32,109 nucleotides of DNA from Flavobacteriaceae bacterium (GCA_002713705.1 PAUJ01000003.1:30677-62785); one strand, 5' to 3'; shown: positions 1 through 9,755, counted from the stretch's first letter. Notes: generated by a model from the sequence alone, not told the origin. Numbers and translations: made by a program.

Positions 1-746
1 ACTGCCTCACTGATAATTCTAGGATGTGATTTTAACATCCTACCTGTTATTGCGGAACCCGTAAATGTAACGACATCTTGTGATTGAACTTCATCTAATA
101 TACTTCTTGCTGAACCAGAAATTAGCTGCAATGACCCTTCTGGTAAAATATTCGATGCTATAATTTCTCTAACTACAGCTTCCGTTAAAAAGGAAGTATT
201 TGTCGCTGGCTTAACTACAGCTGGAACACCTGCCATCCAGTTTACTGCACATTTCTCTAACATTCCCCAAACAGGAAAATTATAGGCATTAATATGTATT
301 GCAACACCTCTTTTGGGAACTAATATATGATGAGCCATAAATCGGCCTCCTTTAGACAAATCAATAGGTTCTCCTTCTATATGATAAGACTGATTAGGAA
401 ATAATTTTCGTAAAGAAGCGTTGGCAAATAAATTACCAAAACCTCCTTCTATATCAATCCAACTATCAACTTTTGTAGCTCCAGTACGGTAGCTAAGGTC
501 ATAAAAATAGTGCTTCTTTTTAATAAGATAAAAAGCCAATTTTTTAAGCATATTACCACGCTCTTGAAAAGTCATTTTTCGTAAAACATCTCCTTTTAGC
601 CTTCCATAATGCAGTACTTCAGAAAGGTCAAAACCTTTAGTATTAGATAAGGCCACAATTTCACCAGTAACAGCATCGACCATTGGAACACCTTCACCTG
701 AACCATAAACCCATTGTCCATTAATATAGCTTTCTAGTTTTTTCAT
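1..746 (-). CDS. paaZ: Bifunctional oxepin-CoA hydrolase/aldehyde dehydrogenase PaaZ, N-terminal ALDH part (runs off the left edge)
   Basis: Absent from the ORF track; translated by hand from ATG at 746: MKKLESYINGQWVYGSGEG...DSWIDIEGG...VAIHINAYNFPVWGMLEK...PAVVKPAT...VVTFTGSA. Open to the window edge, ALDH motifs present, starts 4 nt after the paaJ stop. Confidence 0.93.
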   Translation of the reverse strand, partial: MKKLESYINGQWVYGSGEGVPMVDAVTGEIVALSNTKGFDLSEVLHYGRLKGDVLRKMTFQERGNMLKKLAFYLIKKKHYFYDLSYRTGATKVDSWIDIEGGFGNLFANASLRKLFPNQSYHIEGEPIDLSKGGRFMAHHILVPKRGVAIHINAYNFPVWGMLEKCAVNWMAGVPAVVKPATNTSFLTEAVVREIIASNILPEGSLQLISGSARSILDEVQSQDVVTFTGSAITGRMLKSHPRIISEA

Positions 747-750
747 GACT

Positions 751-1965
751 TTAATTTAAGTTTACATTTTCAATAATTGCAGCATATCCTTGCCCTACGC
801 CGATACACATGGTGATCAATGCGTACTTTTTATTTTGCTCTTTTAATTCTAAGGCTGCAGAATAGGTTATTCTTGCTCCAGTTACTCCTAAGGGGTGTCC
901 GATAGCAATAGAACCTCCGTTTGGATTTAATCGAGGATCGTCATCAGCTAAACCCCAAGCTCTAGTGCATGCCAAAACTTGTGCTGCGAAAGCCTCATTT
1001 AATTCTATTACATCCATATCGTTTATGGTTAATCCTGCTTTTTTCAATGCTTTATTAGAAGCCTCTACGGGACCAATTCCCATTATGCGAGGTTCTACAC
1101 CAATGACTGCAGAACTAACAATTCGTGCAATGGGTTTTAAATTGTATTTTTTTACGGCTTTCTCAGAAGCTATAATAGTTGCAGCAGCACCGTCATTTAA
1201 CCCTGAAGAATTACCTGCAGTAACACTTCCTCCTTCTTTTTTAAAAGCAGGTCTAAGTTTCCCTAAAACCGCTAAAGATGTCATAGGCTTAACAAATTCA
1301 TCTTTAGAAAATTGAATTGGCTCTTTTTTACGTTGTGGAATTTTAACAGTAATTATTTCTTTTGCCAAACGTCCATTTTCTTGAGCTTTTGTTGCTTTCA
1401 TTTGACTCCAATAAGAGAACTTATCTTGATCCTCGCGAGATATATTATACTTTTCTACTAAATTTTCAGCAGTATTTCCCATACCGTCAACACCATAAAG
1501 CTCTTTCATTTTTGGGTTTATAAAACGCCACCCAAAAGTAGAATCATACATTTTAGAATCTCCTCCAAAACCTGTTGATGGCTTTGCGATTACATAGGGC
1601 CCACGAGTCATATTCTCAACTCCTCCTGAAATAAATAAATCCCCATCACCGGCTTTTATAGCTCTATTTGCATGAATAATTGCTGACAATCCTGAACTAC
1701 AAAGTCTGTTGACCGTTTCTCCTGGAACGGTAAAAGGCAAGCCTGCTAATAAGGATGACATACGTGCAACATTTCGATTGTCTTCACCTGCTTGATTTGC
1801 ACAGCCCATGATGACATCATCATAGGCTTCTTTTGGAATATTAGAGTTACGCTTTACAATCTCTGAAATAACCAAAGCTCCCAAATCATCGGTACGAATA
1901 GTTGATAATGTTCCTTTATAATTTCCAATAGGTGTTCTTATTCCGTCTATGATATATGCTTCCAT
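751..1965 (-). CDS. paaJ: 3-oxoadipyl-CoA/3-oxo-5,6-dehydrosuberyl-CoA thiolase (PaaJ/PcaF)
   Basis: Thiolase motifs NRLCSSG, NEAF, GHPLG and MCIGVGQG; CANQAGEDNRNVARM is typical of PcaF/PaaJ; paa context. Confidence 0.93.
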   Translation of the reverse strand: MEAYIIDGIRTPIGNYKGTLSTIRTDDLGALVISEIVKRNSNIPKEAYDDVIMGCANQAGEDNRNVARMSSLLAGLPFTVPGETVNRLCSSGLSAIIHANRAIKAGDGDLFISGGVENMTRGPYVIAKPSTGFGGDSKMYDSTFGWRFINPKMKELYGVDGMGNTAENLVEKYNISREDQDKFSYWSQMKATKAQENGRLAKEIITVKIPQRKKEPIQFSKDEFVKPMTSLAVLGKLRPAFKKEGGSVTAGNSSGLNDGAAATIIASEKAVKKYNLKPIARIVSSAVIGVEPRIMGIGPVEASNKALKKAGLTINDMDVIELNEAFAAQVLACTRAWGLADDDPRLNPNGGSIAIGHPLGVTGARITYSAALELKEQNKKYALITMCIGVGQGYAAIIENVNLN

Positions 1966-2135
1966 TTTTATTCTTAATTGCGGATTAACCGATTTTTGAA
2001 GTGCTACTCTCTTTTAAAAAACTATTCTTATAAGTTCTATTTTATGTGTTAAATTTATCTTTGAGACTAAGGATTTAATGTTGTTAAAATAAACTTTACA
2101 CTTCTTAATCCTCAAATCACAAATCGTTAATCATT

Positions 2136-2543
2136 TTATTTTTTCCAATCTTTCTCTGTTCTATAAACCACTCCTTTAAAAAGAGCTACTAATTCATTTC
2201 CACGTTTTATTTCAACTATATTAAATCCAACTTTATTTTTCTGAAGATCCAATGTAACTTCAGCTGTAATGTAGTCCCCTATTTCTAAAGCTTCTATATG
2301 ATTAATAGATGTTTCGATAGAAACCGCATACTTCCCATGTGTATTTGCTGCAAAGCCAAAAGCGGTGTCCGCTAAAGCATAGGTTATAGCACCATGAGCT
2401 TTATCCATGCTATTCAACATTTCTTTAAGAATTGTCATTCCTAGTTTACAACTTCCAATCTCACAGTCTAATATTTTGACGCCTAACGATTGACTGTAAG
2501 CATCTTGACTTAACATCTTGTAGGGTATTAACTCTCCTTTCAT
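2136..2543 (-). CDS. paaI: Hotdog-fold acyl-CoA thioesterase PaaI
   Basis: 135 aa; AHGAITYALADTAFGFAAN is a PaaI-type motif; its start overlaps the paaH stop (TAATG). Confidence 0.88.
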   Translation of the reverse strand: MKGELIPYKMLSQDAYSQSLGVKILDCEIGSCKLGMTILKEMLNSMDKAHGAITYALADTAFGFAANTHGKYAVSIETSINHIEALEIGDYITAEVTLDLQKNKVGFNIVEIKRGNELVALFKGVVYRTEKDWKK

Positions 2544-3712
2544 TAAAAAAAAGTTTTATTTTCTCGATTCATTTTCCGAAGCAATGGAGAACAACGATAG
2601 CGGTCTTCATGATATTCGTTGTATAAATTATCCATGTTATCTACACACCAATTTATTCCTTTTTCATCTGCCCAAGCCAATAAGCCTTTTGGGTAGTTTA
2701 CTCCGTTTGTCATTGCGGTATCTATATCTTCGGCTGAAGCTATGTTTAAAAATAATGCATCTGCTGCTTCATTGATTAGCATAACTAAAACCCTATCAAA
2801 TATTTGCTGAGACAATCCTCTATTTTGAGGTGTTTTAATTTCTTTTGAAATGACACGTTTGCTATTTTCATCATATTCATAGTAACCAACTCCAGATTTA
2901 CGTCCTAAATAGCCTGCTTCTAAAAAACGTTTTTGTGTAAATGAGGGCTTGTATCTTGAATCGAAATAGAAAGCCTTAAACACCGTTTCTGTAACTGTAT
3001 AATTAATATCATTGCCTATAAAATCCATTAATTCAAATGGACCCATTCGAAAACCACCTAATGTCTTTAAACTATAATCTATGGTTTCAAAATCTGCTAT
3101 ACCTTCTTCGTAAATACGCAAAGCTTCACCGTAAAATGGTCTAGCAACTCTGTTGACTATAAAACCAGGTGTGTCTTTAGTAACTGCTACTGTTTTTTTC
3201 CAACTAGTTATCGTATCTATTGTTTTTTCAAGCACTTCATATGATGTTTGAATAGCAGGAATAACCTCAACCAAATTCATTAATGGTGCTGGATTAAAAA
3301 AGTGAATTCCAACACAACGTTTAGGGTTTTTTAATGATGCAGCTATAGATGCTATTGATAAACTTGAGGTATTTGATGCAATAATACATTCTTCACTAAC
3401 ATAATTTTCTAACTCTAAAAACACTTTTTGCTTAATGTCAAGATTTTCAATAATGGCCTCAATGGTCAAATTAGAATCACTTAATTCTTTTAAAGAACCA
3501 ACATAATTAATATTGTTCTGAATTCGGGTCTTCTCATTAGTATCGATGCGACCTTTTTCAATTAAACGATTTAATATTTTTTCAAGGGAAGCTTTGGCTT
3601 TATCCAAAGCTATTTGATTGGTGTCGTATAAATTTACGATACAACCTGCAGTAGCAGCTACCTGCGCTATTCCACTTCCCATCGTACCACCTCCTATAAT
3701 TCCAACTGTCAT
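2543..3712 (-). CDS. paaH: 3-hydroxyacyl-CoA (3-hydroxyadipyl-CoA) dehydrogenase PaaH
   Basis: GGGTMGSGIA Rossmann motif, SNTSSLSI, HFFNPAP, GFIVNR and MGPFELMD, plus a second C-terminal dimerisation domain; paa context. Confidence 0.9.
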   Translation of the reverse strand: MTVGIIGGGTMGSGIAQVAATAGCIVNLYDTNQIALDKAKASLEKILNRLIEKGRIDTNEKTRIQNNINYVGSLKELSDSNLTIEAIIENLDIKQKVFLELENYVSEECIIASNTSSLSIASIAASLKNPKRCVGIHFFNPAPLMNLVEVIPAIQTSYEVLEKTIDTITSWKKTVAVTKDTPGFIVNRVARPFYGEALRIYEEGIADFETIDYSLKTLGGFRMGPFELMDFIGNDINYTVTETVFKAFYFDSRYKPSFTQKRFLEAGYLGRKSGVGYYEYDENSKRVISKEIKTPQNRGLSQQIFDRVLVMLINEAADALFLNIASAEDIDTAMTNGVNYPKGLLAWADEKGINWCVDNMDNLYNEYHEDRYRCSPLLRKMNRENKTFF

Positions 3713-3721
3713 ACTATATAT

Positions 3722-4657
3722 TTAAAACGGTAAATTATTTAAATCTACATTACCACCGGAAATGATAATACCGATATTTTTATTTTTAAAATTATTTTTT
3801 TCTTTTAGTAATGCTGCAAAAGCAACGGCACTTGAAGGCTCCACTACTATTTTCATTCGTTCCCATATCAATTTCATCGCATTGATAATTTCATCTTCAC
3901 TAACTCGTATAATAGTTTTGACATGTGCTAATATGATCGGAAAATTTCGATCCCCCAAAAATGTTCTTAGACCATCTGCGATGGTATTGGAATTATCATT
4001 AAATACTATTTTCCCACTTTTTAAAGATCGATAAGCATCGTCCACATTTTCTGGCTCTGCACCTATTACCTCACACTTATCTGAAAAATAGTTAGCAGAT
4101 AAAGCAGTTCCTGCCAATAAACCTCCTCCTCCAACTGGAGTAAAAATAACCTCTAAATCGGGATAATCTTCTAATAATTCTTTGGCCGAAGTTCCTTGAC
4201 CTAAAATTACTTGATCATCGTTTGAAGGGTGTATAAAGGTAGCATTCTTTTCTATTCTAATTTTTTCAGCTGCTGCTTCGCGAGCTTTTAAATTAGACTC
4301 ACATTCTATTATTTCACCTTTATAATTTTTAACAGCATCTTTTTTTACTTGTGGTGCATTTTTAGGCATTACTATATATGCTTTAACATTCATTTTAGTT
4401 GCTGCTAATGATAAAGCTTGAGCAAAATTTCCAGACGAATGTGTTACCACTCCACAATTACGCTGTTCCTCTGATAGACTTAAAATTGCATTTGCTGCAC
4501 CTCGCATTTTAAAAGCTCCCATTTTTTGAAAATTCTCGCATTTAAAAAACACCTTACAACCTGTAATTTCATTTATCAACTCAGAACTAAGTACAGGTGT
4601 GCGATGAATGTATGGTTTCACTTTATCATGGACTTGTATCAAGGTTTCTTTATTCAT
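3722..4657 (-). CDS. PLP-dependent serine racemase/threonine dehydratase-family enzyme (fold type II), substrate unknown
   Basis: KCENFQKMGAFKMRG (PLP Lys50), THSSGNF, PVGGGGL, EPSSA and ISGGN motifs; no ACT domain; its start overlaps the paaG stop. Confidence 0.88.
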   Translation of the reverse strand: MNKETLIQVHDKVKPYIHRTPVLSSELINEITGCKVFFKCENFQKMGAFKMRGAANAILSLSEEQRNCGVVTHSSGNFAQALSLAATKMNVKAYIVMPKNAPQVKKDAVKNYKGEIIECESNLKAREAAAEKIRIEKNATFIHPSNDDQVILGQGTSAKELLEDYPDLEVIFTPVGGGGLLAGTALSANYFSDKCEVIGAEPENVDDAYRSLKSGKIVFNDNSNTIADGLRTFLGDRNFPIILAHVKTIIRVSEDEIINAMKLIWERMKIVVEPSSAVAFAALLKEKNNFKNKNIGIIISGGNVDLNNLPF

Positions 4658-5439
4658 TATTTTCCTTTGAAAATTGGCTTTCTCTTTTCCATAAAAGCAT
4701 TAACTCCTTCTGTATAATCTTCAGATAGAGCAGCTTCAATTTGTAATTTTCCTTCTAATTCTAATTGTTGCTCTAAGGTATTTGTATTTGATTTATTTAA
4801 TAATTCTTTAATAAGCCCTAAAGCTTTGGTCGGCATATTTGCTAATTTAACAGCTAGTTTTTCAACTTCTCCATTAAAACTTTCGGATGAAATCACTTTA
4901 AAAATCATTCCCAATTCTTCCGCTTCTTCAGCCGTCACTTTATCTCCTAACATCATTAAAGCAGTGGCTTTCTGAAAACCAATTAATCTTGGTAAAAAAA
5001 AAGTCCCACCACTATCTGGTATCAATCCTATTTTACTAAATGCTTGGATAAAACTAGCTTTATTTGACGCTACAACCAAATCACAAGACAAAGCAATATT
5101 TGCTCCTGCTCCTGCTGCTACACCATTTACAGCTGCTATAATAGGTTTATGAATAGATCTAATTCTAGTGATAATGGGATTGTAATGTTCTTCTAATATT
5201 TTTTTAAAACCAGGATTTAATTCTGAACTAGTAACTTCCTTTAAATCTTGACCAGCACAAAACGCCTTTCCGTTTCCGGTAATAACAATAGATCTAACCT
5301 CATTATTATATTCACAGTCATCCAATATACTTTGAAGTAACAATGCCATTTCTCGGTTGAAACTATTAAATACATCAGGTCTGTTAAGTGTTATATAAGC
5401 AACTTGATTTTCTATTTTTATAAGAATACTATTGTTCAT
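4657..5439 (-). CDS. paaG: Enoyl-CoA hydratase/isomerase-family protein, probably PaaG (epoxyphenylacetyl-CoA isomerase)
   Basis: Crotonase motifs AFCAGQDL and VAAGAGAN; IGLIPDSGG retains the PaaG-type Asp; lies directly after paaD. Confidence 0.85.
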   Translation of the reverse strand: MNNSILIKIENQVAYITLNRPDVFNSFNREMALLLQSILDDCEYNNEVRSIVITGNGKAFCAGQDLKEVTSSELNPGFKKILEEHYNPIITRIRSIHKPIIAAVNGVAAGAGANIALSCDLVVASNKASFIQAFSKIGLIPDSGGTFFLPRLIGFQKATALMMLGDKVTAEEAEELGMIFKVISSESFNGEVEKLAVKLANMPTKALGLIKELLNKSNTNTLEQQLELEGKLQIEAALSEDYTEGVNAFMEKRKPIFKGK

Positions 5440-5453
5440 TTATCAATATTAAG

Positions 5454-5951
5454 TTAAAGACATTTAAAATAGTCGAATGGCTCTTGACAATCTTCACACT
5501 TAAATAAAGCTTTGCAAGCAGTTGATCCAAATTGACTTACTAATTTTGTGTTTTGTGAACGGCAATTGGTACACTTGATCAATCGTTTTCCATTTAATAA
5601 TACCTCTTTATCAGCGTCAGCTTCTAAGGGTGCAGCTATACCATAATCTTCTAATGCTTTTCTTCCTATTGGTGTAATCCAATCGGTCGTCCAAGCTGGG
5701 TGAAGGATTAAATCTATTTTGGAATCATAGCTAGCATTTTTTAATGCTTTTTCAATATCATCTCCTATAACATCCATTGCAGGACAACCACTATAAGTTG
5801 GTGTGATTTCAACTTCTACAATACCATTTATGATTAATGCAGAACGCACAACTCCCATATCCATAATAGACAATACAGGGATTTCTGGATCAGAAACCTG
5901 TTCTAGTATTGGAATTAAAATTGGGTCGATATGTTGTTGCGTTTTATTCAT
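5454..5951 (-). CDS. paaD: Phenylacetyl-CoA epoxidase maturation subunit PaaD
   Basis: DPEIPVLSI, ITPTYSGCPAM, AWTTDW and C-terminal Cys cluster CTNC...FGSTACKALFKCEDCQEPFDYFK. Confidence 0.93.
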   Translation of the reverse strand: MNKTQQHIDPILIPILEQVSDPEIPVLSIMDMGVVRSALIINGIVEVEITPTYSGCPAMDVIGDDIEKALKNASYDSKIDLILHPAWTTDWITPIGRKALEDYGIAAPLEADADKEVLLNGKRLIKCTNCRSQNTKLVSQFGSTACKALFKCEDCQEPFDYFKCL

Positions 5952-5952
5952 C

Positions 5953-6705
5953 TTACCATTCCATATTCGGATAGGTGCGTTGCATGTATTGTAAATCAGT
6001 TAATAAATATCCTAAATGCTCCGTATGAATTCCTTCTTTACCTCCTTTTTGAAACCATTTAGAATCGGGAATTTGGAGTGTTGCTTCTTCTAAAAGATCC
6101 TTAACTCTTTTGTAGTAGTTGTCTTTAAGTTTTGTAACATCTACTCCTACACATTCTAAAACCATCGCTTTGTCAGCTTTTGTTTGATGAAATAATTCAT
6201 CAGTATAGGTCCATAAATCATTGATGGCTTCTTGTATCTTTTCTTTACTTTCTGCTGTACCATCACCTAATCGCTTCACCCAATCAGATGAAAATCGCTC
6301 GTGATAACTCACTTCTTTGATGCATTTATTAGCAATAGCCGATAGTGTTAAATCTGTACTTTTTTGCAATTCAGCTAAAAAGGCTAAATGATAAACATCA
6401 AATAAAAACTGACGCCCAATAGTATGTGCAAAATTTAAATTTGGTTGTTCTACTAATAATACATTTTTATAGTCGCGTTCTTTGCGAAGCATTGCGATAT
6501 CATCTTCGGTTCTATCATCTCCTGCAATTTTCACAGCGTATTGAAAATAACTTCGTACTTGCCCCAATAAATCCAATGATATATTAGTACAAGCAATATC
6601 TGTTTCCAAACTTGGTCCATGACCACAGAGTTCTCCCATACGTTGTCCTAGAATTAGACTGTTGTCTGCGATACCAAGAATATAGTTATATAGATTCTCT
6701 TTCAT
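5953..6705 (-). CDS. paaC: Phenylacetyl-CoA epoxidase structural subunit PaaC
   Basis: ADNSLILGQR, NISLDLLGQ, KEVSYH, GIHTEHLGYLL. Confidence 0.94.
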   Translation of the reverse strand: MKENLYNYILGIADNSLILGQRMGELCGHGPSLETDIACTNISLDLLGQVRSYFQYAVKIAGDDRTEDDIAMLRKERDYKNVLLVEQPNLNFAHTIGRQFLFDVYHLAFLAELQKSTDLTLSAIANKCIKEVSYHERFSSDWVKRLGDGTAESKEKIQEAINDLWTYTDELFHQTKADKAMVLECVGVDVTKLKDNYYKRVKDLLEEATLQIPDSKWFQKGGKEGIHTEHLGYLLTDLQYMQRTYPNMEW

Positions 6706-6992
6706 TACATGTGTTTTACTTCGTCTGGTAAATCGTAAAAGGTTGGATGGCGGTATACTTTATCTTGAGCAGGCTCAAATAATTCACCATTATTATCAGG
6801 GTTTGAAGCTGTTATGTGTTTAGATTCTATAACCCAAATACTTACACCTTCATTTCGTCTCGTATAAACATCACGCGCATTCTCTAGAGCCATCTCTGCA
6901 TCTGCTGCATGAAGACTTCCAAAATGACGATGTTCTAACCCGTTTTTACTTCTGACAAAAATTTCCCAAATTGGCCAATTTTTTTTTGACAT
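6705..6992 (-). CDS. paaB: Phenylacetyl-CoA epoxidase subunit PaaB
   Basis: WEIFVRSKNGLEHRHFGSLHA, ARDVYTRRNEGVSIWV, YRHPTFY. Confidence 0.95.
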   Translation of the reverse strand: MSKKNWPIWEIFVRSKNGLEHRHFGSLHAADAEMALENARDVYTRRNEGVSIWVIESKHITASNPDNNGELFEPAQDKVYRHPTFYDLPDEVKHM

Positions 6993-7004
6993 GACTATCT
7001 GTTT

Positions 7005-7961
7005 TTATACAACTTGTTTTTCTTTTCTTTCTTGTTTCTTTTCAGCATAGGCCATAGCCGCATCACGAACCCATTCGCCTTCTTCCCATGCTCCTACTCG
7101 AGCTCTCATTCGCTCTTTATTGCAAGGCCCATGACCTTTTACAACCTGCCAAAACTCTTCCCAATTAATTTTACCATAGTCGTAACTACCACGTTCATCA
7201 TTCCATTTTAAGTCTGGATCAGGAATTGTTAGCCCAATCAATTCGGCTTGAGGAACAGTTTGATCTATAAATTGCTGACGTAAATCATCATTAGATTTAC
7301 GTTTTAATTTCCATTTCATAGATTGTTCTGTATGAATAGATTCTGCATCCGTTGGACCTAACATCATAAGGCTTGGCCACCACCAGCGATTCAGAGCATC
7401 TTGAGCTAAATCCTTTTGTTCCATTGTTCCATTTGCCAATTTCATCATAATTTCATATCCTTGACGTTGGTGAAAACTTTCTTCCTTGCATACACGAACC
7501 ATAGCTCTTGCATAGGGTCCGTACGATGTACTGCAGAGCGGAACTTGATTAATTATAGCGGCACCATCTACTAACCAGCCTATTGCACCCATATCTGCCC
7601 AAGTTACCGTTGGATAATTGAAAATACTCGAATATTTTGCTGCACCCGTATGAAGTTGGTTATATAATTCTTCTCTTGAAATACCTAAAGTTTCCGTTGC
7701 AGAATATAAATACAATCCATGCCCAGCTTCGTCTTGAACCTTTGCTAATAATGCTACTTTTCTTCTTAAAGAAGGAGCCCTAGTAATCCAATTGCTTTCT
7801 GGAAGCATTCCTACAATTTCAGAATGCGCATGTTGAGACATTTGTCTAATATGTGTCTTGCGATACTTTTCTGGCATCCAGTCTTTTGGTTCAATTTTTT
7901 CGTCACGAGCAATGCGTGCTTCAAATTGAGTTTCTAAATTTTTTATTTGTTCTTTACTCAT
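7005..7961 (-). CDS. paaA: Phenylacetyl-CoA epoxidase catalytic di-iron subunit PaaA
   Basis: [26 protein letters not shown] and KEESFHQ (ExxH ligands). Confidence 0.96.
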
Positions 7962-8048
7962 TTTTTTATGTTTTTGCCTTTTGGCTATTAACCTTTAGCG
8001 AGTTGAACTTCAATTTTTATTTTCAATATAAACCTATTGGATTTATGA

Positions 8049-9119
8049 CTAAACATCAAAATCTACTATTACTTTTTTAGTTGTTGGAACAGCTTGACAA
8101 CTTAACACATATTGTTGTGCAACTTCCTTTTCATCTAAGGCATAATTCACTTTCATGAACACCTCTCCTTCAACTACTCGACATTTACATGTACTGCAAA
8201 CTCCACCTTTACAAGCGAATGGTAAATCTGAACCTGCATTTAAAGCGGCATCCAGAATATTTCCGTCTCCTTTAGGCATACCAAAATGAAATTCTTTACC
8301 TCCATCTATAATGGTAATTTCAACTTGATCTCTTTCTGATATTTCAGTGTTTTTAGTTTCCTTGACATTTTCTTTTGAAAGACCTGTTACAAATAACTCA
8401 AAATGAATCTTTTCTGAGGCCATTCCTGCTTTTATCAATTCATCTTTTACTAAAAAAATCATTTCTTCAGGGCCACAAAGAAAGCATTCATCTAAACTTG
8501 AAACATCTACTAATTTATCAAAAATTATTTCTAATTTTTCTTTTGAAAACCGCCCATTAAACAATTCTACATCTCTGTATTCTTTAGTTAAAAAATAAAA
8601 CAACTCAATCCTTCCGAAATATTGATTTCTAAGTTGTTCTATTTCTTCTTTAAAAATAATAGATTTAACAGTACGGTTCAAATAAAATAATTTGAAGGTA
8701 CTATTAGGTTCCATTTCTAAATGAGTTTTCAATATCGAAAGTATAGGGGTAATACCACTACCCGCTGTAAAAAAAATATAATTTTTTGGTGTCTCAGAAG
8801 TTGCAATGCCAAACCTACCCATCGGTTTCATTACTTTTAAAACATCACCTTTTTTTAGAGTTTCGTTTACAAAAGTTGAAAATTTACCATCAGGTATTTT
8901 CTTAACTGCTACTTTCCATTCATGATCCAAAGGACTAGAACATAAACTATAAGAACGCCTAATATCCTCATCATCTATCGTGTCTCTTAAGGTTAAATAT
9001 TGGCCTGGCTTAAACTTAAATGTTTTTTTTAAATCCTCCGGTACATTAAACGCTATGACCGAACAATCGTCAGTATCTTTATAAATATCTTTTACTTCAA
9101 GGGAATGAAATTTAGCCAC
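8049..9119 (-). CDS. paaE: Phenylacetyl-CoA epoxidase FAD/[2Fe-2S] reductase PaaE
   Basis: RSYS, AGSGITP, CGP, FELF and C-terminal CKGGVCSTC...C ferredoxin motifs. Start moved from the track's 9146 to GTG at 9119 (MAKFHSL...), because the longer start falls inside the operator palindrome. Confidence 0.92.
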   Translation of the reverse strand: MAKFHSLEVKDIYKDTDDCSVIAFNVPEDLKKTFKFKPGQYLTLRDTIDDEDIRRSYSLCSSPLDHEWKVAVKKIPDGKFSTFVNETLKKGDVLKVMKPMGRFGIATSETPKNYIFFTAGSGITPILSILKTHLEMEPNSTFKLFYLNRTVKSIIFKEEIEQLRNQYFGRIELFYFLTKEYRDVELFNGRFSKEKLEIIFDKLVDVSSLDECFLCGPEEMIFLVKDELIKAGMASEKIHFELFVTGLSKENVKETKNTEISERDQVEITIIDGGKEFHFGMPKGDGNILDAALNAGSDLPFACKGGVCSTCKCRVVEGEVFMKVNYALDEKEVAQQYVLSCQAVPTTKKVIVDFDV

Positions 9120-9137
9120 AATTATAATATTTATTTC

Positions 9138-9155
9138 AACTAACAATCGTTAGTT
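9138..9155. promoter_or_regulatory. Palindromic operator candidate for the TetR (PaaR-like) repressor
   Basis: Perfect inverted repeat AACTAAC-AATC-GTTAGTT, 7 nt downstream of the paaE -7 promoter element. Confidence 0.75.
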
Positions 9156-9162
9156 TACGTTA

Positions 9163-9170
9163 CAAAGATA
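9163..9170 (-). promoter_or_regulatory. Bacteroidota sigma-A -7 element for the paa operon
   Basis: TATCTTTG on the minus strand, 43 nt upstream of the paaE GTG; no clear -33 element. Confidence 0.65.
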
Positions 9171-9185
9171 CTAAATATTTACTAT

Positions 9186-9755
9186 TTATTTATTTATTCC
9201 TTTTAACAGCACTTCACTTAAGTTAGCAGCTAAAAGTGAAGGCTCCATATCATCTTTTTTTGGGACCCAAAGGTATAATGATCTTAAGGTAGATAGGATA
9301 GAAAATACCATAATATCGGGATTTATATTTTTTATTTCATTTTTTAAAATACCTTCACTGATAATATTTCTAAAAGAATTTTCATATTCCATACGCAAGG
9401 CTAAATAATGGTTTAATTGATCCTTTAAATGCATCCAATCGTTATTTAAAGAAGCCATTCCGTTAGTATTCCTGCTGGAAATATCTATATGTAAAATAAT
9501 AATTTGCTTTAATTTATATATGCAATCATTATTGCCACTTTTTATTTTTTCTAATCCATCAATAAACTCTTCCGCCAGTGATATAATAATAAATGTAAGA
9601 ATATCCTCTTTGTTCTGTATGTGATTATAAAGGCTAGCAGCTTTAATTCCCATTACTTTTGCGATATCTCGCATCGTGACAGCACTATAACCTTTTTCTT
9701 TAAAAAGGGTAGAGGCTACGGAAATAATTTCTAATTTTCTGGGAGATGGTTTCAT
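9186..9755 (-). CDS. paaR: TetR/AcrR-family transcriptional regulator, probably the paa repressor PaaR
   Basis: N-terminal TetR HTH (LFKEKGYSAVTMRDIAKVMGIKAASLYNH); lies immediately upstream of paaE. The PaaR name is inferred from context. Confidence 0.75.
   Translation of the reverse strand: MKPSPRKLEIISVASTLFKEKGYSAVTMRDIAKVMGIKAASLYNHIQNKEDILTFIIISLAEEFIDGLEKIKSGNNDCIYKLKQIIILHIDISSRNTNGMASLNNDWMHLKDQLNHYLALRMEYENSFRNIISEGILKNEIKNINPDIMVFSILSTLRSLYLWVPKKDDMEPSLLAANLSEVLLKGINK

Follow-up and report, generated by a model that had tools for sequence, protein, structure and literature searches.

The gene for a serine-racemase-like PLP enzyme that separates paaG from paaH in the window (the whole stretch of 32,109 nucleotides analysed, from a Flavobacteriaceae bacterium) is an integral cistron of the paa operon in this genome; nevertheless, its upkeep is independent of the paa pathway, and its product is probably not a PaaA-K/Z ring-opening step. 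The reading that we favour, at a probability of roughly 60%, is that the protein is a β-hydroxy-amino-acid ammonia-lyase acting on serine, threonine or 3-hydroxyaspartate, possibly a racemase as well, that is carried as a paa-independent passenger in an amino-acid catabolic island. It is regarded as a passenger rather than a missing pathway step because relatives that have lost paa keep the gene under the same selection, and a polar or acidic substrate is favoured because the enzyme has the equivalent of R135 of human serine racemase (SR) and because its two best NCBIfam models are both hydroxyaspartate dehydratases. The substrate, the balance between dehydration and racemisation, and co-regulation with paa are predictions read from sequence.

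The block spans positions 3-9755 in the order TetR-PaaE-A-B-C-D-G-[PLP]-H-I-J-Z, with spacers of -1 to 170 nt (Table 1). Across the junction of paaG and the PLP gene the minus strand reads ...GGAAAATAATGAATAAA..., and the last A of the paaG TAA (4659-4657) serves as the first base of the PLP-gene ATG (4657-4655); at the other end, 9 nt separate the PLP-gene stop (3722-3724) from the paaH ATG at 3712. Sequence and spacing agree with the earlier note on this point, which had described an integral cistron with an overlapping start. By its position the gene would be co-transcribed and translationally coupled with paa, the spacing being what suggests co-transcription. GC and GC3 of the PLP gene are the same as those of its neighbours in the operon, and horizontal insertion, for which they give no signal, was rejected. 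Matches to internal promoters and terminators around the gene were at the chance level of shuffled sequence, in a scan with no model of Bacteroidota promoters. In nearly all paa-linked loci with a sufficiently long flank, a tblastn match to the TetR regulator is found at the same position.

Table 1. Features of the paa operon in the window
Feature	Position	Strand	Basis
Serine-racemase-like fold-type II PLP enzyme, 311 aa	3722..4657	-	Pfam PALP, NCBIfam and PDB matches
TAATG overlap; paaG stop and PLP-gene start share one base	4655..4659	-	Sequence and spacing
paaG (1,2-epoxyphenylacetyl-CoA isomerase), immediately upstream of the PLP gene	4657..5439	-	TIGR02280, 310 bits, best match; cut-off of 345 not reached
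paaH-type 3-hydroxyacyl-CoA dehydrogenase, 9 nt downstream of the PLP gene	2543..3712	-	NF006124, 507 bits; TIGR02279, 472 bits
paaE-paaA-paaB-paaC-paaD, ring 1,2-epoxidase genes, same operon	5454..9146	-	TIGR02160, TIGR02156, TIGR02157, TIGR02158, TIGR02159; A to D above cut-off
TetR-family regulator (PaaR-like), operon head	9186..9755	-	ORF list; position kept in relatives
paaI thioesterase	2136-2543	-	TIGR02286, NF006551, TIGR02430 (set for the paaI/paaJ/paaZ block, 3..2543)
paaJ thiolase	751-1965	-	Same model set as paaI and paaZ
paaZ N-terminus, runs off the window	3-746	-	Same model set as paaI and paaJ

Judged by Pfam, NCBIfam and PDB matches, the 311-aa protein is an intact member of the serine racemase/L-threo-3-hydroxyaspartate dehydratase clan, as the earlier note had held in assigning it to the serine racemases and β-hydroxy-amino-acid dehydratases. 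The best NCBIfam models are BhcB, with 417 bits against a cut-off of 550, and threo-3-hydroxy-L-aspartate ammonia-lyase, with 383 against 452, and the generic threonine and serine dehydratase models score lower than both; relatives score 396-461 and 367-390 bits on the same two models, below cut-off in all Bacteroidota homologs tested. The top PDB match is 6lut, the 'probable serine racemase' of Dictyostelium (E 1e-93), followed by the maize, S. pombe and human SR.

The residue map, read from the PDB alignments with human and S. pombe SR, confirms that Lys50, Ser75, Phe78 and Arg126 correspond to human K56, S84, H87 and R135, as the earlier note had aligned them. K50, in GAFKMRGA, is the Schiff-base lysine of the S/A-F-K-x-R-G motif (S. 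pombe K57), and S75 (S. pombe S82), in the loop T72-H-S-S75-G-N-F78, is at the re-face base position, which we take to be alanine in threonine dehydratases such as IlvA and TdcB. K105 aligns with human K114, H143-P-S145 with the substrate loop H152-P-N154, and E201/D207 with the Mg (divalent-metal) site E210/D216; the phosphate loop is a tetraglycine (GGGG, G176-G179), and the invariant motif S300-G-G-N supplies the serine near the pyridine N1. K50, S74-S75-G-N, R126, GGGG, E201/D207 and SGGN are all invariant in 99 sequences (70 paa-linked, 10 paa-less and 19 more distant). In human SR, K56 and S84 are the bases of the si and re face, respectively, and R135 positions acidic substrates, L-threo-hydroxyaspartate and L-serine-O-sulfate being favoured about 100-fold over L-Ser (PMC6424897). 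Since L-threo-hydroxyaspartate dehydratases conserve S84 and R135 equally well (PMC6424897), the equivalents of these two residues define the clan and not a racemase.

Three of these residues had been put forward as clues in the earlier note; in a family-wide comparison none is specific to paa. Ser75 and Arg126 are family-wide rather than paa-specific, being kept in 121 and 122, respectively, of 126 diverse full-length family representatives. Phe78 marks a minority clade rather than paa linkage: the residue after SSGN is His in 127 and Phe in 15 of 150 diverse representatives, and Phe78 is present without exception in the 87 F-type sequences sampled, 17 of them without paa linkage. Ser145 is fixed across the 80-row clade, and Phe78 and Ser145 occur together in a single one of the 126 representatives; the two are not generally coupled. 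A compensatory swap of His78 to Phe with aromatic residue 145 to Ser was ruled out in these representatives, in which Phe78 is mostly accompanied by Tyr or Phe at 145 and Ser145 mostly by His78. The rare combination of Phe78 and Ser145 could reflect an unusual substrate.

Among characterized systems, the eukaryotic serine racemases (Dictyostelium 6LUT, maize 5CVC, S. pombe 1V71 and human 3L6B) are the closest in structure databases; the one from Dictyostelium is about 55% identical over the full length. They share the PLP lysine, the SSGN loop with its re-face serine, the Arg135 equivalent, the tetraglycine loop and the Glu/Asp metal site, but have His87 in place of Phe78 and a loop H/P-P-F/Y/N in place of H-P-S, and the present gene is in a bacterial operon. 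BhcB and threo-3-hydroxy-L-aspartate ammonia-lyase (NF045641 and NF005454), the best curated models, have the same fold and the arginine that binds the β-carboxylate; however, the protein scores under both curated cut-offs, and no bhcA, bhcC or bhcD lies beside its gene. Membership of the β-hydroxyaspartate cycle was ruled out on these grounds: the scores are below cut-off, the bhc partners (aminotransferase, aldolase and iminosuccinate reductase) are missing, and the neighbours are paa genes or unrelated. The bacterial SerR homologs assayed by Uda et al. in 2025, which comprise L-Ser dehydratases and Ser, Asp, Asn and Arg racemases, belong to the same monophyletic family; substrate loop 146-148 is a recognized determinant of specificity among them, none of the 20 assayed is from Bacteroidota, and the H-P-S loop with Phe78 is not among the patterns described (PMC11850409). 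Tree position in this family predicts activity poorly (PMC11850409). For the phenylserine dehydratase of Ralstonia pickettii PS22, which is said to use PLP and to yield phenylpyruvate, the literature matches mention only a use in biocatalysis; the same activity is disfavoured here by Arg126, by the polar pocket residues and by paa-independent retention.

In the mechanism that we propose, Lys50 would hold PLP and, as the si-face base, take the α-proton of a small polar β-hydroxy-L-amino acid, the candidates being L-Ser, L-Thr or, favoured by Arg126, L-threo-3-hydroxyaspartate. Elimination of the β-hydroxyl would give an enamine, and hydrolysis a 2-oxo acid (pyruvate, 2-oxobutyrate or oxaloacetate) and ammonium, while Ser75, as the re-face base, could permit some racemisation. 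In the linked sub-clade, the place of the gene between paaG and paaH would mean that it is switched on with phenylalanine/phenylacetyl-CoA breakdown, within an island in which a 2-oxoacid dehydrogenase, BCAT, urocanase and an aromatic amino-acid hydroxylase are also encoded.

The linkage to paa was followed through the nearest 80 loci of a scan with one genome per species, all from Flavobacteriaceae and 69-97% identical. The order TetR-paaEABCD-paaG-PLP-paaH-I-J-Z is the same in 71 of these loci, so that the paaG-PLP-paaH linkage is more than chance, and it is limited to one sub-clade of the family, made up of Winogradskyella, Yeosuana, Lacinutrix, Geojedonia and the uncultured lineage of the window. 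Tight coupling is broken in many Winogradskyella loci by spacers of 0.4-0.6 kb. In the one such locus examined, from Winogradskyella pacifica (L066:3000-8000), the gaps contain a GC-rich palindrome of REP-like character, GATTGTCCCCTTGAGGGGACTTTAGGGGTGTT, that recurs on either side of the PLP gene, together with duplicated small ORFs of about 116 aa of the four-helix-bundle type. In a MAG 97% identical to the window (L036:2994-3927), the PLP gene is split by a frameshift near residue 230-239, reflecting either a misassembly or recent pseudogene formation. To our knowledge, the PaaA-K/Z scheme has no amine intermediate. A literature search found no paper describing a PLP gene in flavobacterial paa clusters, and a 2026 survey of paa clusters mentions none (PMC13186573).

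Ten syntenic loci (the other nine of the 80, and L082) carry the PLP gene without adjacent paa genes. Their flanks are kept in the order rhodanese/(VOC)/PLP/ECH/aromatic amino-acid hydroxylase (on the other strand)/DUF4136/urocanase, which places the PLP gene two genes from the hydroxylase. PaaA is absent genome-wide in all ten of these relatives (nine of the 80 loci, and G402), seven of which are isolates or assemblies rated 94-100% complete (G004/G443, G006, G008, G009, G402, G003/G725 and G005), the other three being unrated MAGs. The fused E1 2-oxoacid dehydrogenase of the cluster adjoins paa in five of five paa genomes tested, and no ortholog of it (E≤1e-100) was found in any of five paa-less genomes; E1 thus co-varies with paa, whereas the PLP gene does not. 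The PLP tree splits the paa-less rows into three groups, all nested in the paa-linked clade and one of them sister to paa-linked Yeosuana rows, and parsimony requires three changes, at least two of which are forced by well-supported branches. It is implausible that four separate paa blocks were each reassembled in an identical order, so these loci are best read as losses of paa with the PLP gene kept. Pairwise dN/dS is 0.03-0.11 for paa-linked and 0.04-0.09 for paa-less copies, and the two groups do not separate at any of about 50 positions examined, among them those of the active site and the substrate loop. If the gene is indeed a passenger, overlapping stop and start codons kept across genera do not prove pathway membership, and natural pathway-loss lineages can test guilt-by-association calls.

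A 121-aa gene of the VOC/glyoxalase fold with no NCBIfam match lies next to the PLP gene in four of the paa-less loci (L006:6643-7008, and L032, L039 and L061), its stop overlapping the PLP start by 8 nt. No paaG deletion scar was found at the VOC-PLP junction of the paa-less loci, the C-terminus of the VOC protein being its own. The same gene is present between paaD and paaG in several paa-linked loci, and no VOC homolog is found in the window's genome. The aromatic amino-acid hydroxylase, a conserved neighbour of the block, has 586 aa (NF010657, 878 bits; L006:8744-10504, minus strand) and lies upstream of TetR in L001-L003; bacterial Phe-4-hydroxylases are usually about half as long. It has no match in the window's genome (tblastn, 1e-5).

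Across 401 Flavobacteriaceae species genomes, some of them incomplete MAGs, 184 have an ortholog of the PLP gene (E≤1e-100) and 141 have PaaA; 94 have both, 90 the PLP gene only and 47 PaaA only. The two co-occur above expectation (odds ratio 3.8, p 8e-10), a raw figure that ignores phylogeny and genome size. They are adjacent in at least 21 of the 401 genomes, all at 69% identity to the query or above, and the other checkable pairs among the matches listed are on different contigs or at least 49 kb apart; in about 70 other family genomes with both genes the paa-operon position was not seen. Across the phylum, SR-like genes are common in a sample of 401 genomes and lie beside PaaA only in the window's genome. 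Thus, the earlier note's placing of the enzyme in an unassigned branch of phenylacetate catabolism is not upheld: linkage is a property of one sub-clade, 90 of the 184 ortholog-bearing genomes lack PaaA, and dN/dS is the same with and without paa.

That note had also named sporadic paa linkage among homologues as an outcome that would tell against its own reading, and linkage is largely of this kind, firm in one sub-clade (71 of the nearest 80) and replaced elsewhere by unlinked or paa-less orthologs. In the comparison of SSGNF and SSGNH neighbourhoods that it proposed, the F-type is linked in the sub-clade and unlinked, among unrelated neighbours, further out: of 20 more distant orthologs, 12 have THSSGNH and seven, all unlinked, have THSSGNF, two of these seven coming from outside Flavobacteriaceae and five from within it. 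Orthologs with THSSGNF at 62-77% identity are in unrelated contexts or in paa-less syntenic loci. The neighbours of the distant orthologs include DUF1684, GldD, an ABC ATPase, alkaline phosphatase, a sodium:solute symporter, an S58 peptidase, a desaturase and PIG-L, and no conserved neighbour was found among them. The enzyme represents a widespread Flavobacteriaceae branch of the serine racemases (184 of 401 species genomes) with an unusual Phe-for-His loop residue.

In the window's own genome, the operon continues past window position 3 (G000 C3:23080-31422) as paaZ-ECH-PaaY-lipoyl E2-type II BCAT-fused E1 alpha/beta. The ECH, a divergent crotonase, has no specific NCBIfam model, its best match of 93 bits being far under cut-off. 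PaaK is absent from the genome and the cluster has its own BCAT and E1/E2, so phenylpyruvate is the likely entry point: phenylacetyl-CoA would probably be made from it by these enzymes independently of PaaK, which suggests a route from Phe through phenylpyruvate to phenylacetyl-CoA. Flavobacterial paa clusters that lack PaaK and have their own BCAT and fused E1/E2 look more like phenylalanine than phenylacetate clusters. The SR-like gene is the sole detectable fold-type II gene of the Ser/Thr-dehydratase type in this 2.5-Mb genome. A role as a substitute for biosynthetic IlvA was ruled out, because IlvD is absent from the genome and the 311-aa protein has no C-terminal ACT-like regulatory domain.

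This arrangement is what gives some appeal to an enzyme that feeds the pathway, the first of the two inferences in the earlier note, either by dehydrating a β-hydroxy aromatic amino acid such as L-threo-phenylserine or by racemising D-Phe, the resulting phenylpyruvate or L-Phe passing through BCAT and E1/E2 to phenylacetyl-CoA for PaaABCDE. A phenylpyruvate-forming lyase would fit a genome without PaaK in which BCAT, E2 and a fused E1 that is gained and lost with paa follow directly on paaZ-ECH-paaY; the operon position is stable in 71 loci, the aromatic amino-acid hydroxylase is a conserved neighbour, and Phe78 puts a hydrophobic residue into the substrate-carboxylate loop. Set against this, the ortholog is under equal purifying selection in genomes without PaaA and E1, Phe78 is also present in unlinked orthologs, the loop residues are polar (H-P-S-N-D), and the invariant Arg126 is the binder of acidic side chains in SR (PMC6424897). 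By analogy with SR, the conserved arginine argues against a hydrophobic pocket for phenylserine or Phe, and we consider such a feeder quite unlikely. A version of it in which Phe78 and Ser145 confer a new specificity, for example for β-hydroxy or D-aromatic amino acids of algal or peptide source, so that in the paa-linked sub-clade the enzyme would open a PaaK-independent entry branch through phenylpyruvate, BCAT and E1/E2, with paa-less relatives using the neighbouring aromatic hydroxylase as the route instead, seems to us just as doubtful. Either would amount to a new entry reaction into a central aromatic pathway. An enzyme that is mainly a racemase of Ser, Asp or another amino acid, using D-amino acids from marine dissolved organic matter or making one, with dehydration secondary, is unlikely too. 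The re-face Ser75 and the closest PDB relatives speak for it, as does the adjacency of one distant F-type ortholog to an S58 (DmpA-type) peptidase; SerR, AspR, ArgR and mixed enzymes are all found among bacterial homologs, and specificity shifts towards Asp when the 146-148 loop contains a Ser, which is here at the third position (PMC11850409). However, Ser84 and Arg135 are no less conserved in the L-threo-hydroxyaspartate dehydratases (PMC6424897), the top NCBIfam models are dehydratases, and 6 of the 20 assayed bacterial homologs are pure L-Ser dehydratases in spite of typical SerR loops (PMC11850409). Very improbable, in our judgement, is a separate small module of the PLP enzyme and ECH, with VOC where present, acting on an amino-acyl or CoA-linked substrate. 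It would account for the only block genes that survive the loss of paa, since all 10 of the paa-less syntenic loci have PLP and ECH and four have VOC, for the 8-nt overlap of VOC and PLP genes in those four and for an ECH without a specific model, but VOC has no homolog in the window's genome, neither ECH nor VOC lies near the F-type orthologs further out, and no known chemistry joins a fold-type II PLP lyase to a crotonase.

The preferred reading, an ammonia-lyase kept independently of paa, has to accommodate observations of its own. The slot between paaG and paaH, with codons that often overlap or nearly abut, is kept across several genera and may indicate selection for co-expression with paa rather than inertia. 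Co-occurrence of the ortholog with PaaA is above expectation (the odds ratio of 3.8), the aromatic hydroxylase is still two genes away in the paa-less loci, and the transaminase and 2-oxoacid dehydrogenase of the cluster could consume a 2-oxo acid released by the PLP enzyme.

Other features of this genome were noted. The paaZ product has 831 aa (G000 C3:28927-31422), with about 150 residues after the aldehyde dehydrogenase and hydratase parts; E. coli PaaZ is shorter. The region G000 C3:25000-31400 contains many ambiguous bases (X in translations), and gene details there are of low quality. A second fold-type II PLP gene, of the ACC deaminase/D-cysteine desulfhydrase family (TIGR01275, 134 bits, below cut-off), is located at G000 C3:14784-15701, about 13 kb downstream of the fused E1 gene that ends the cluster and near urocanase.
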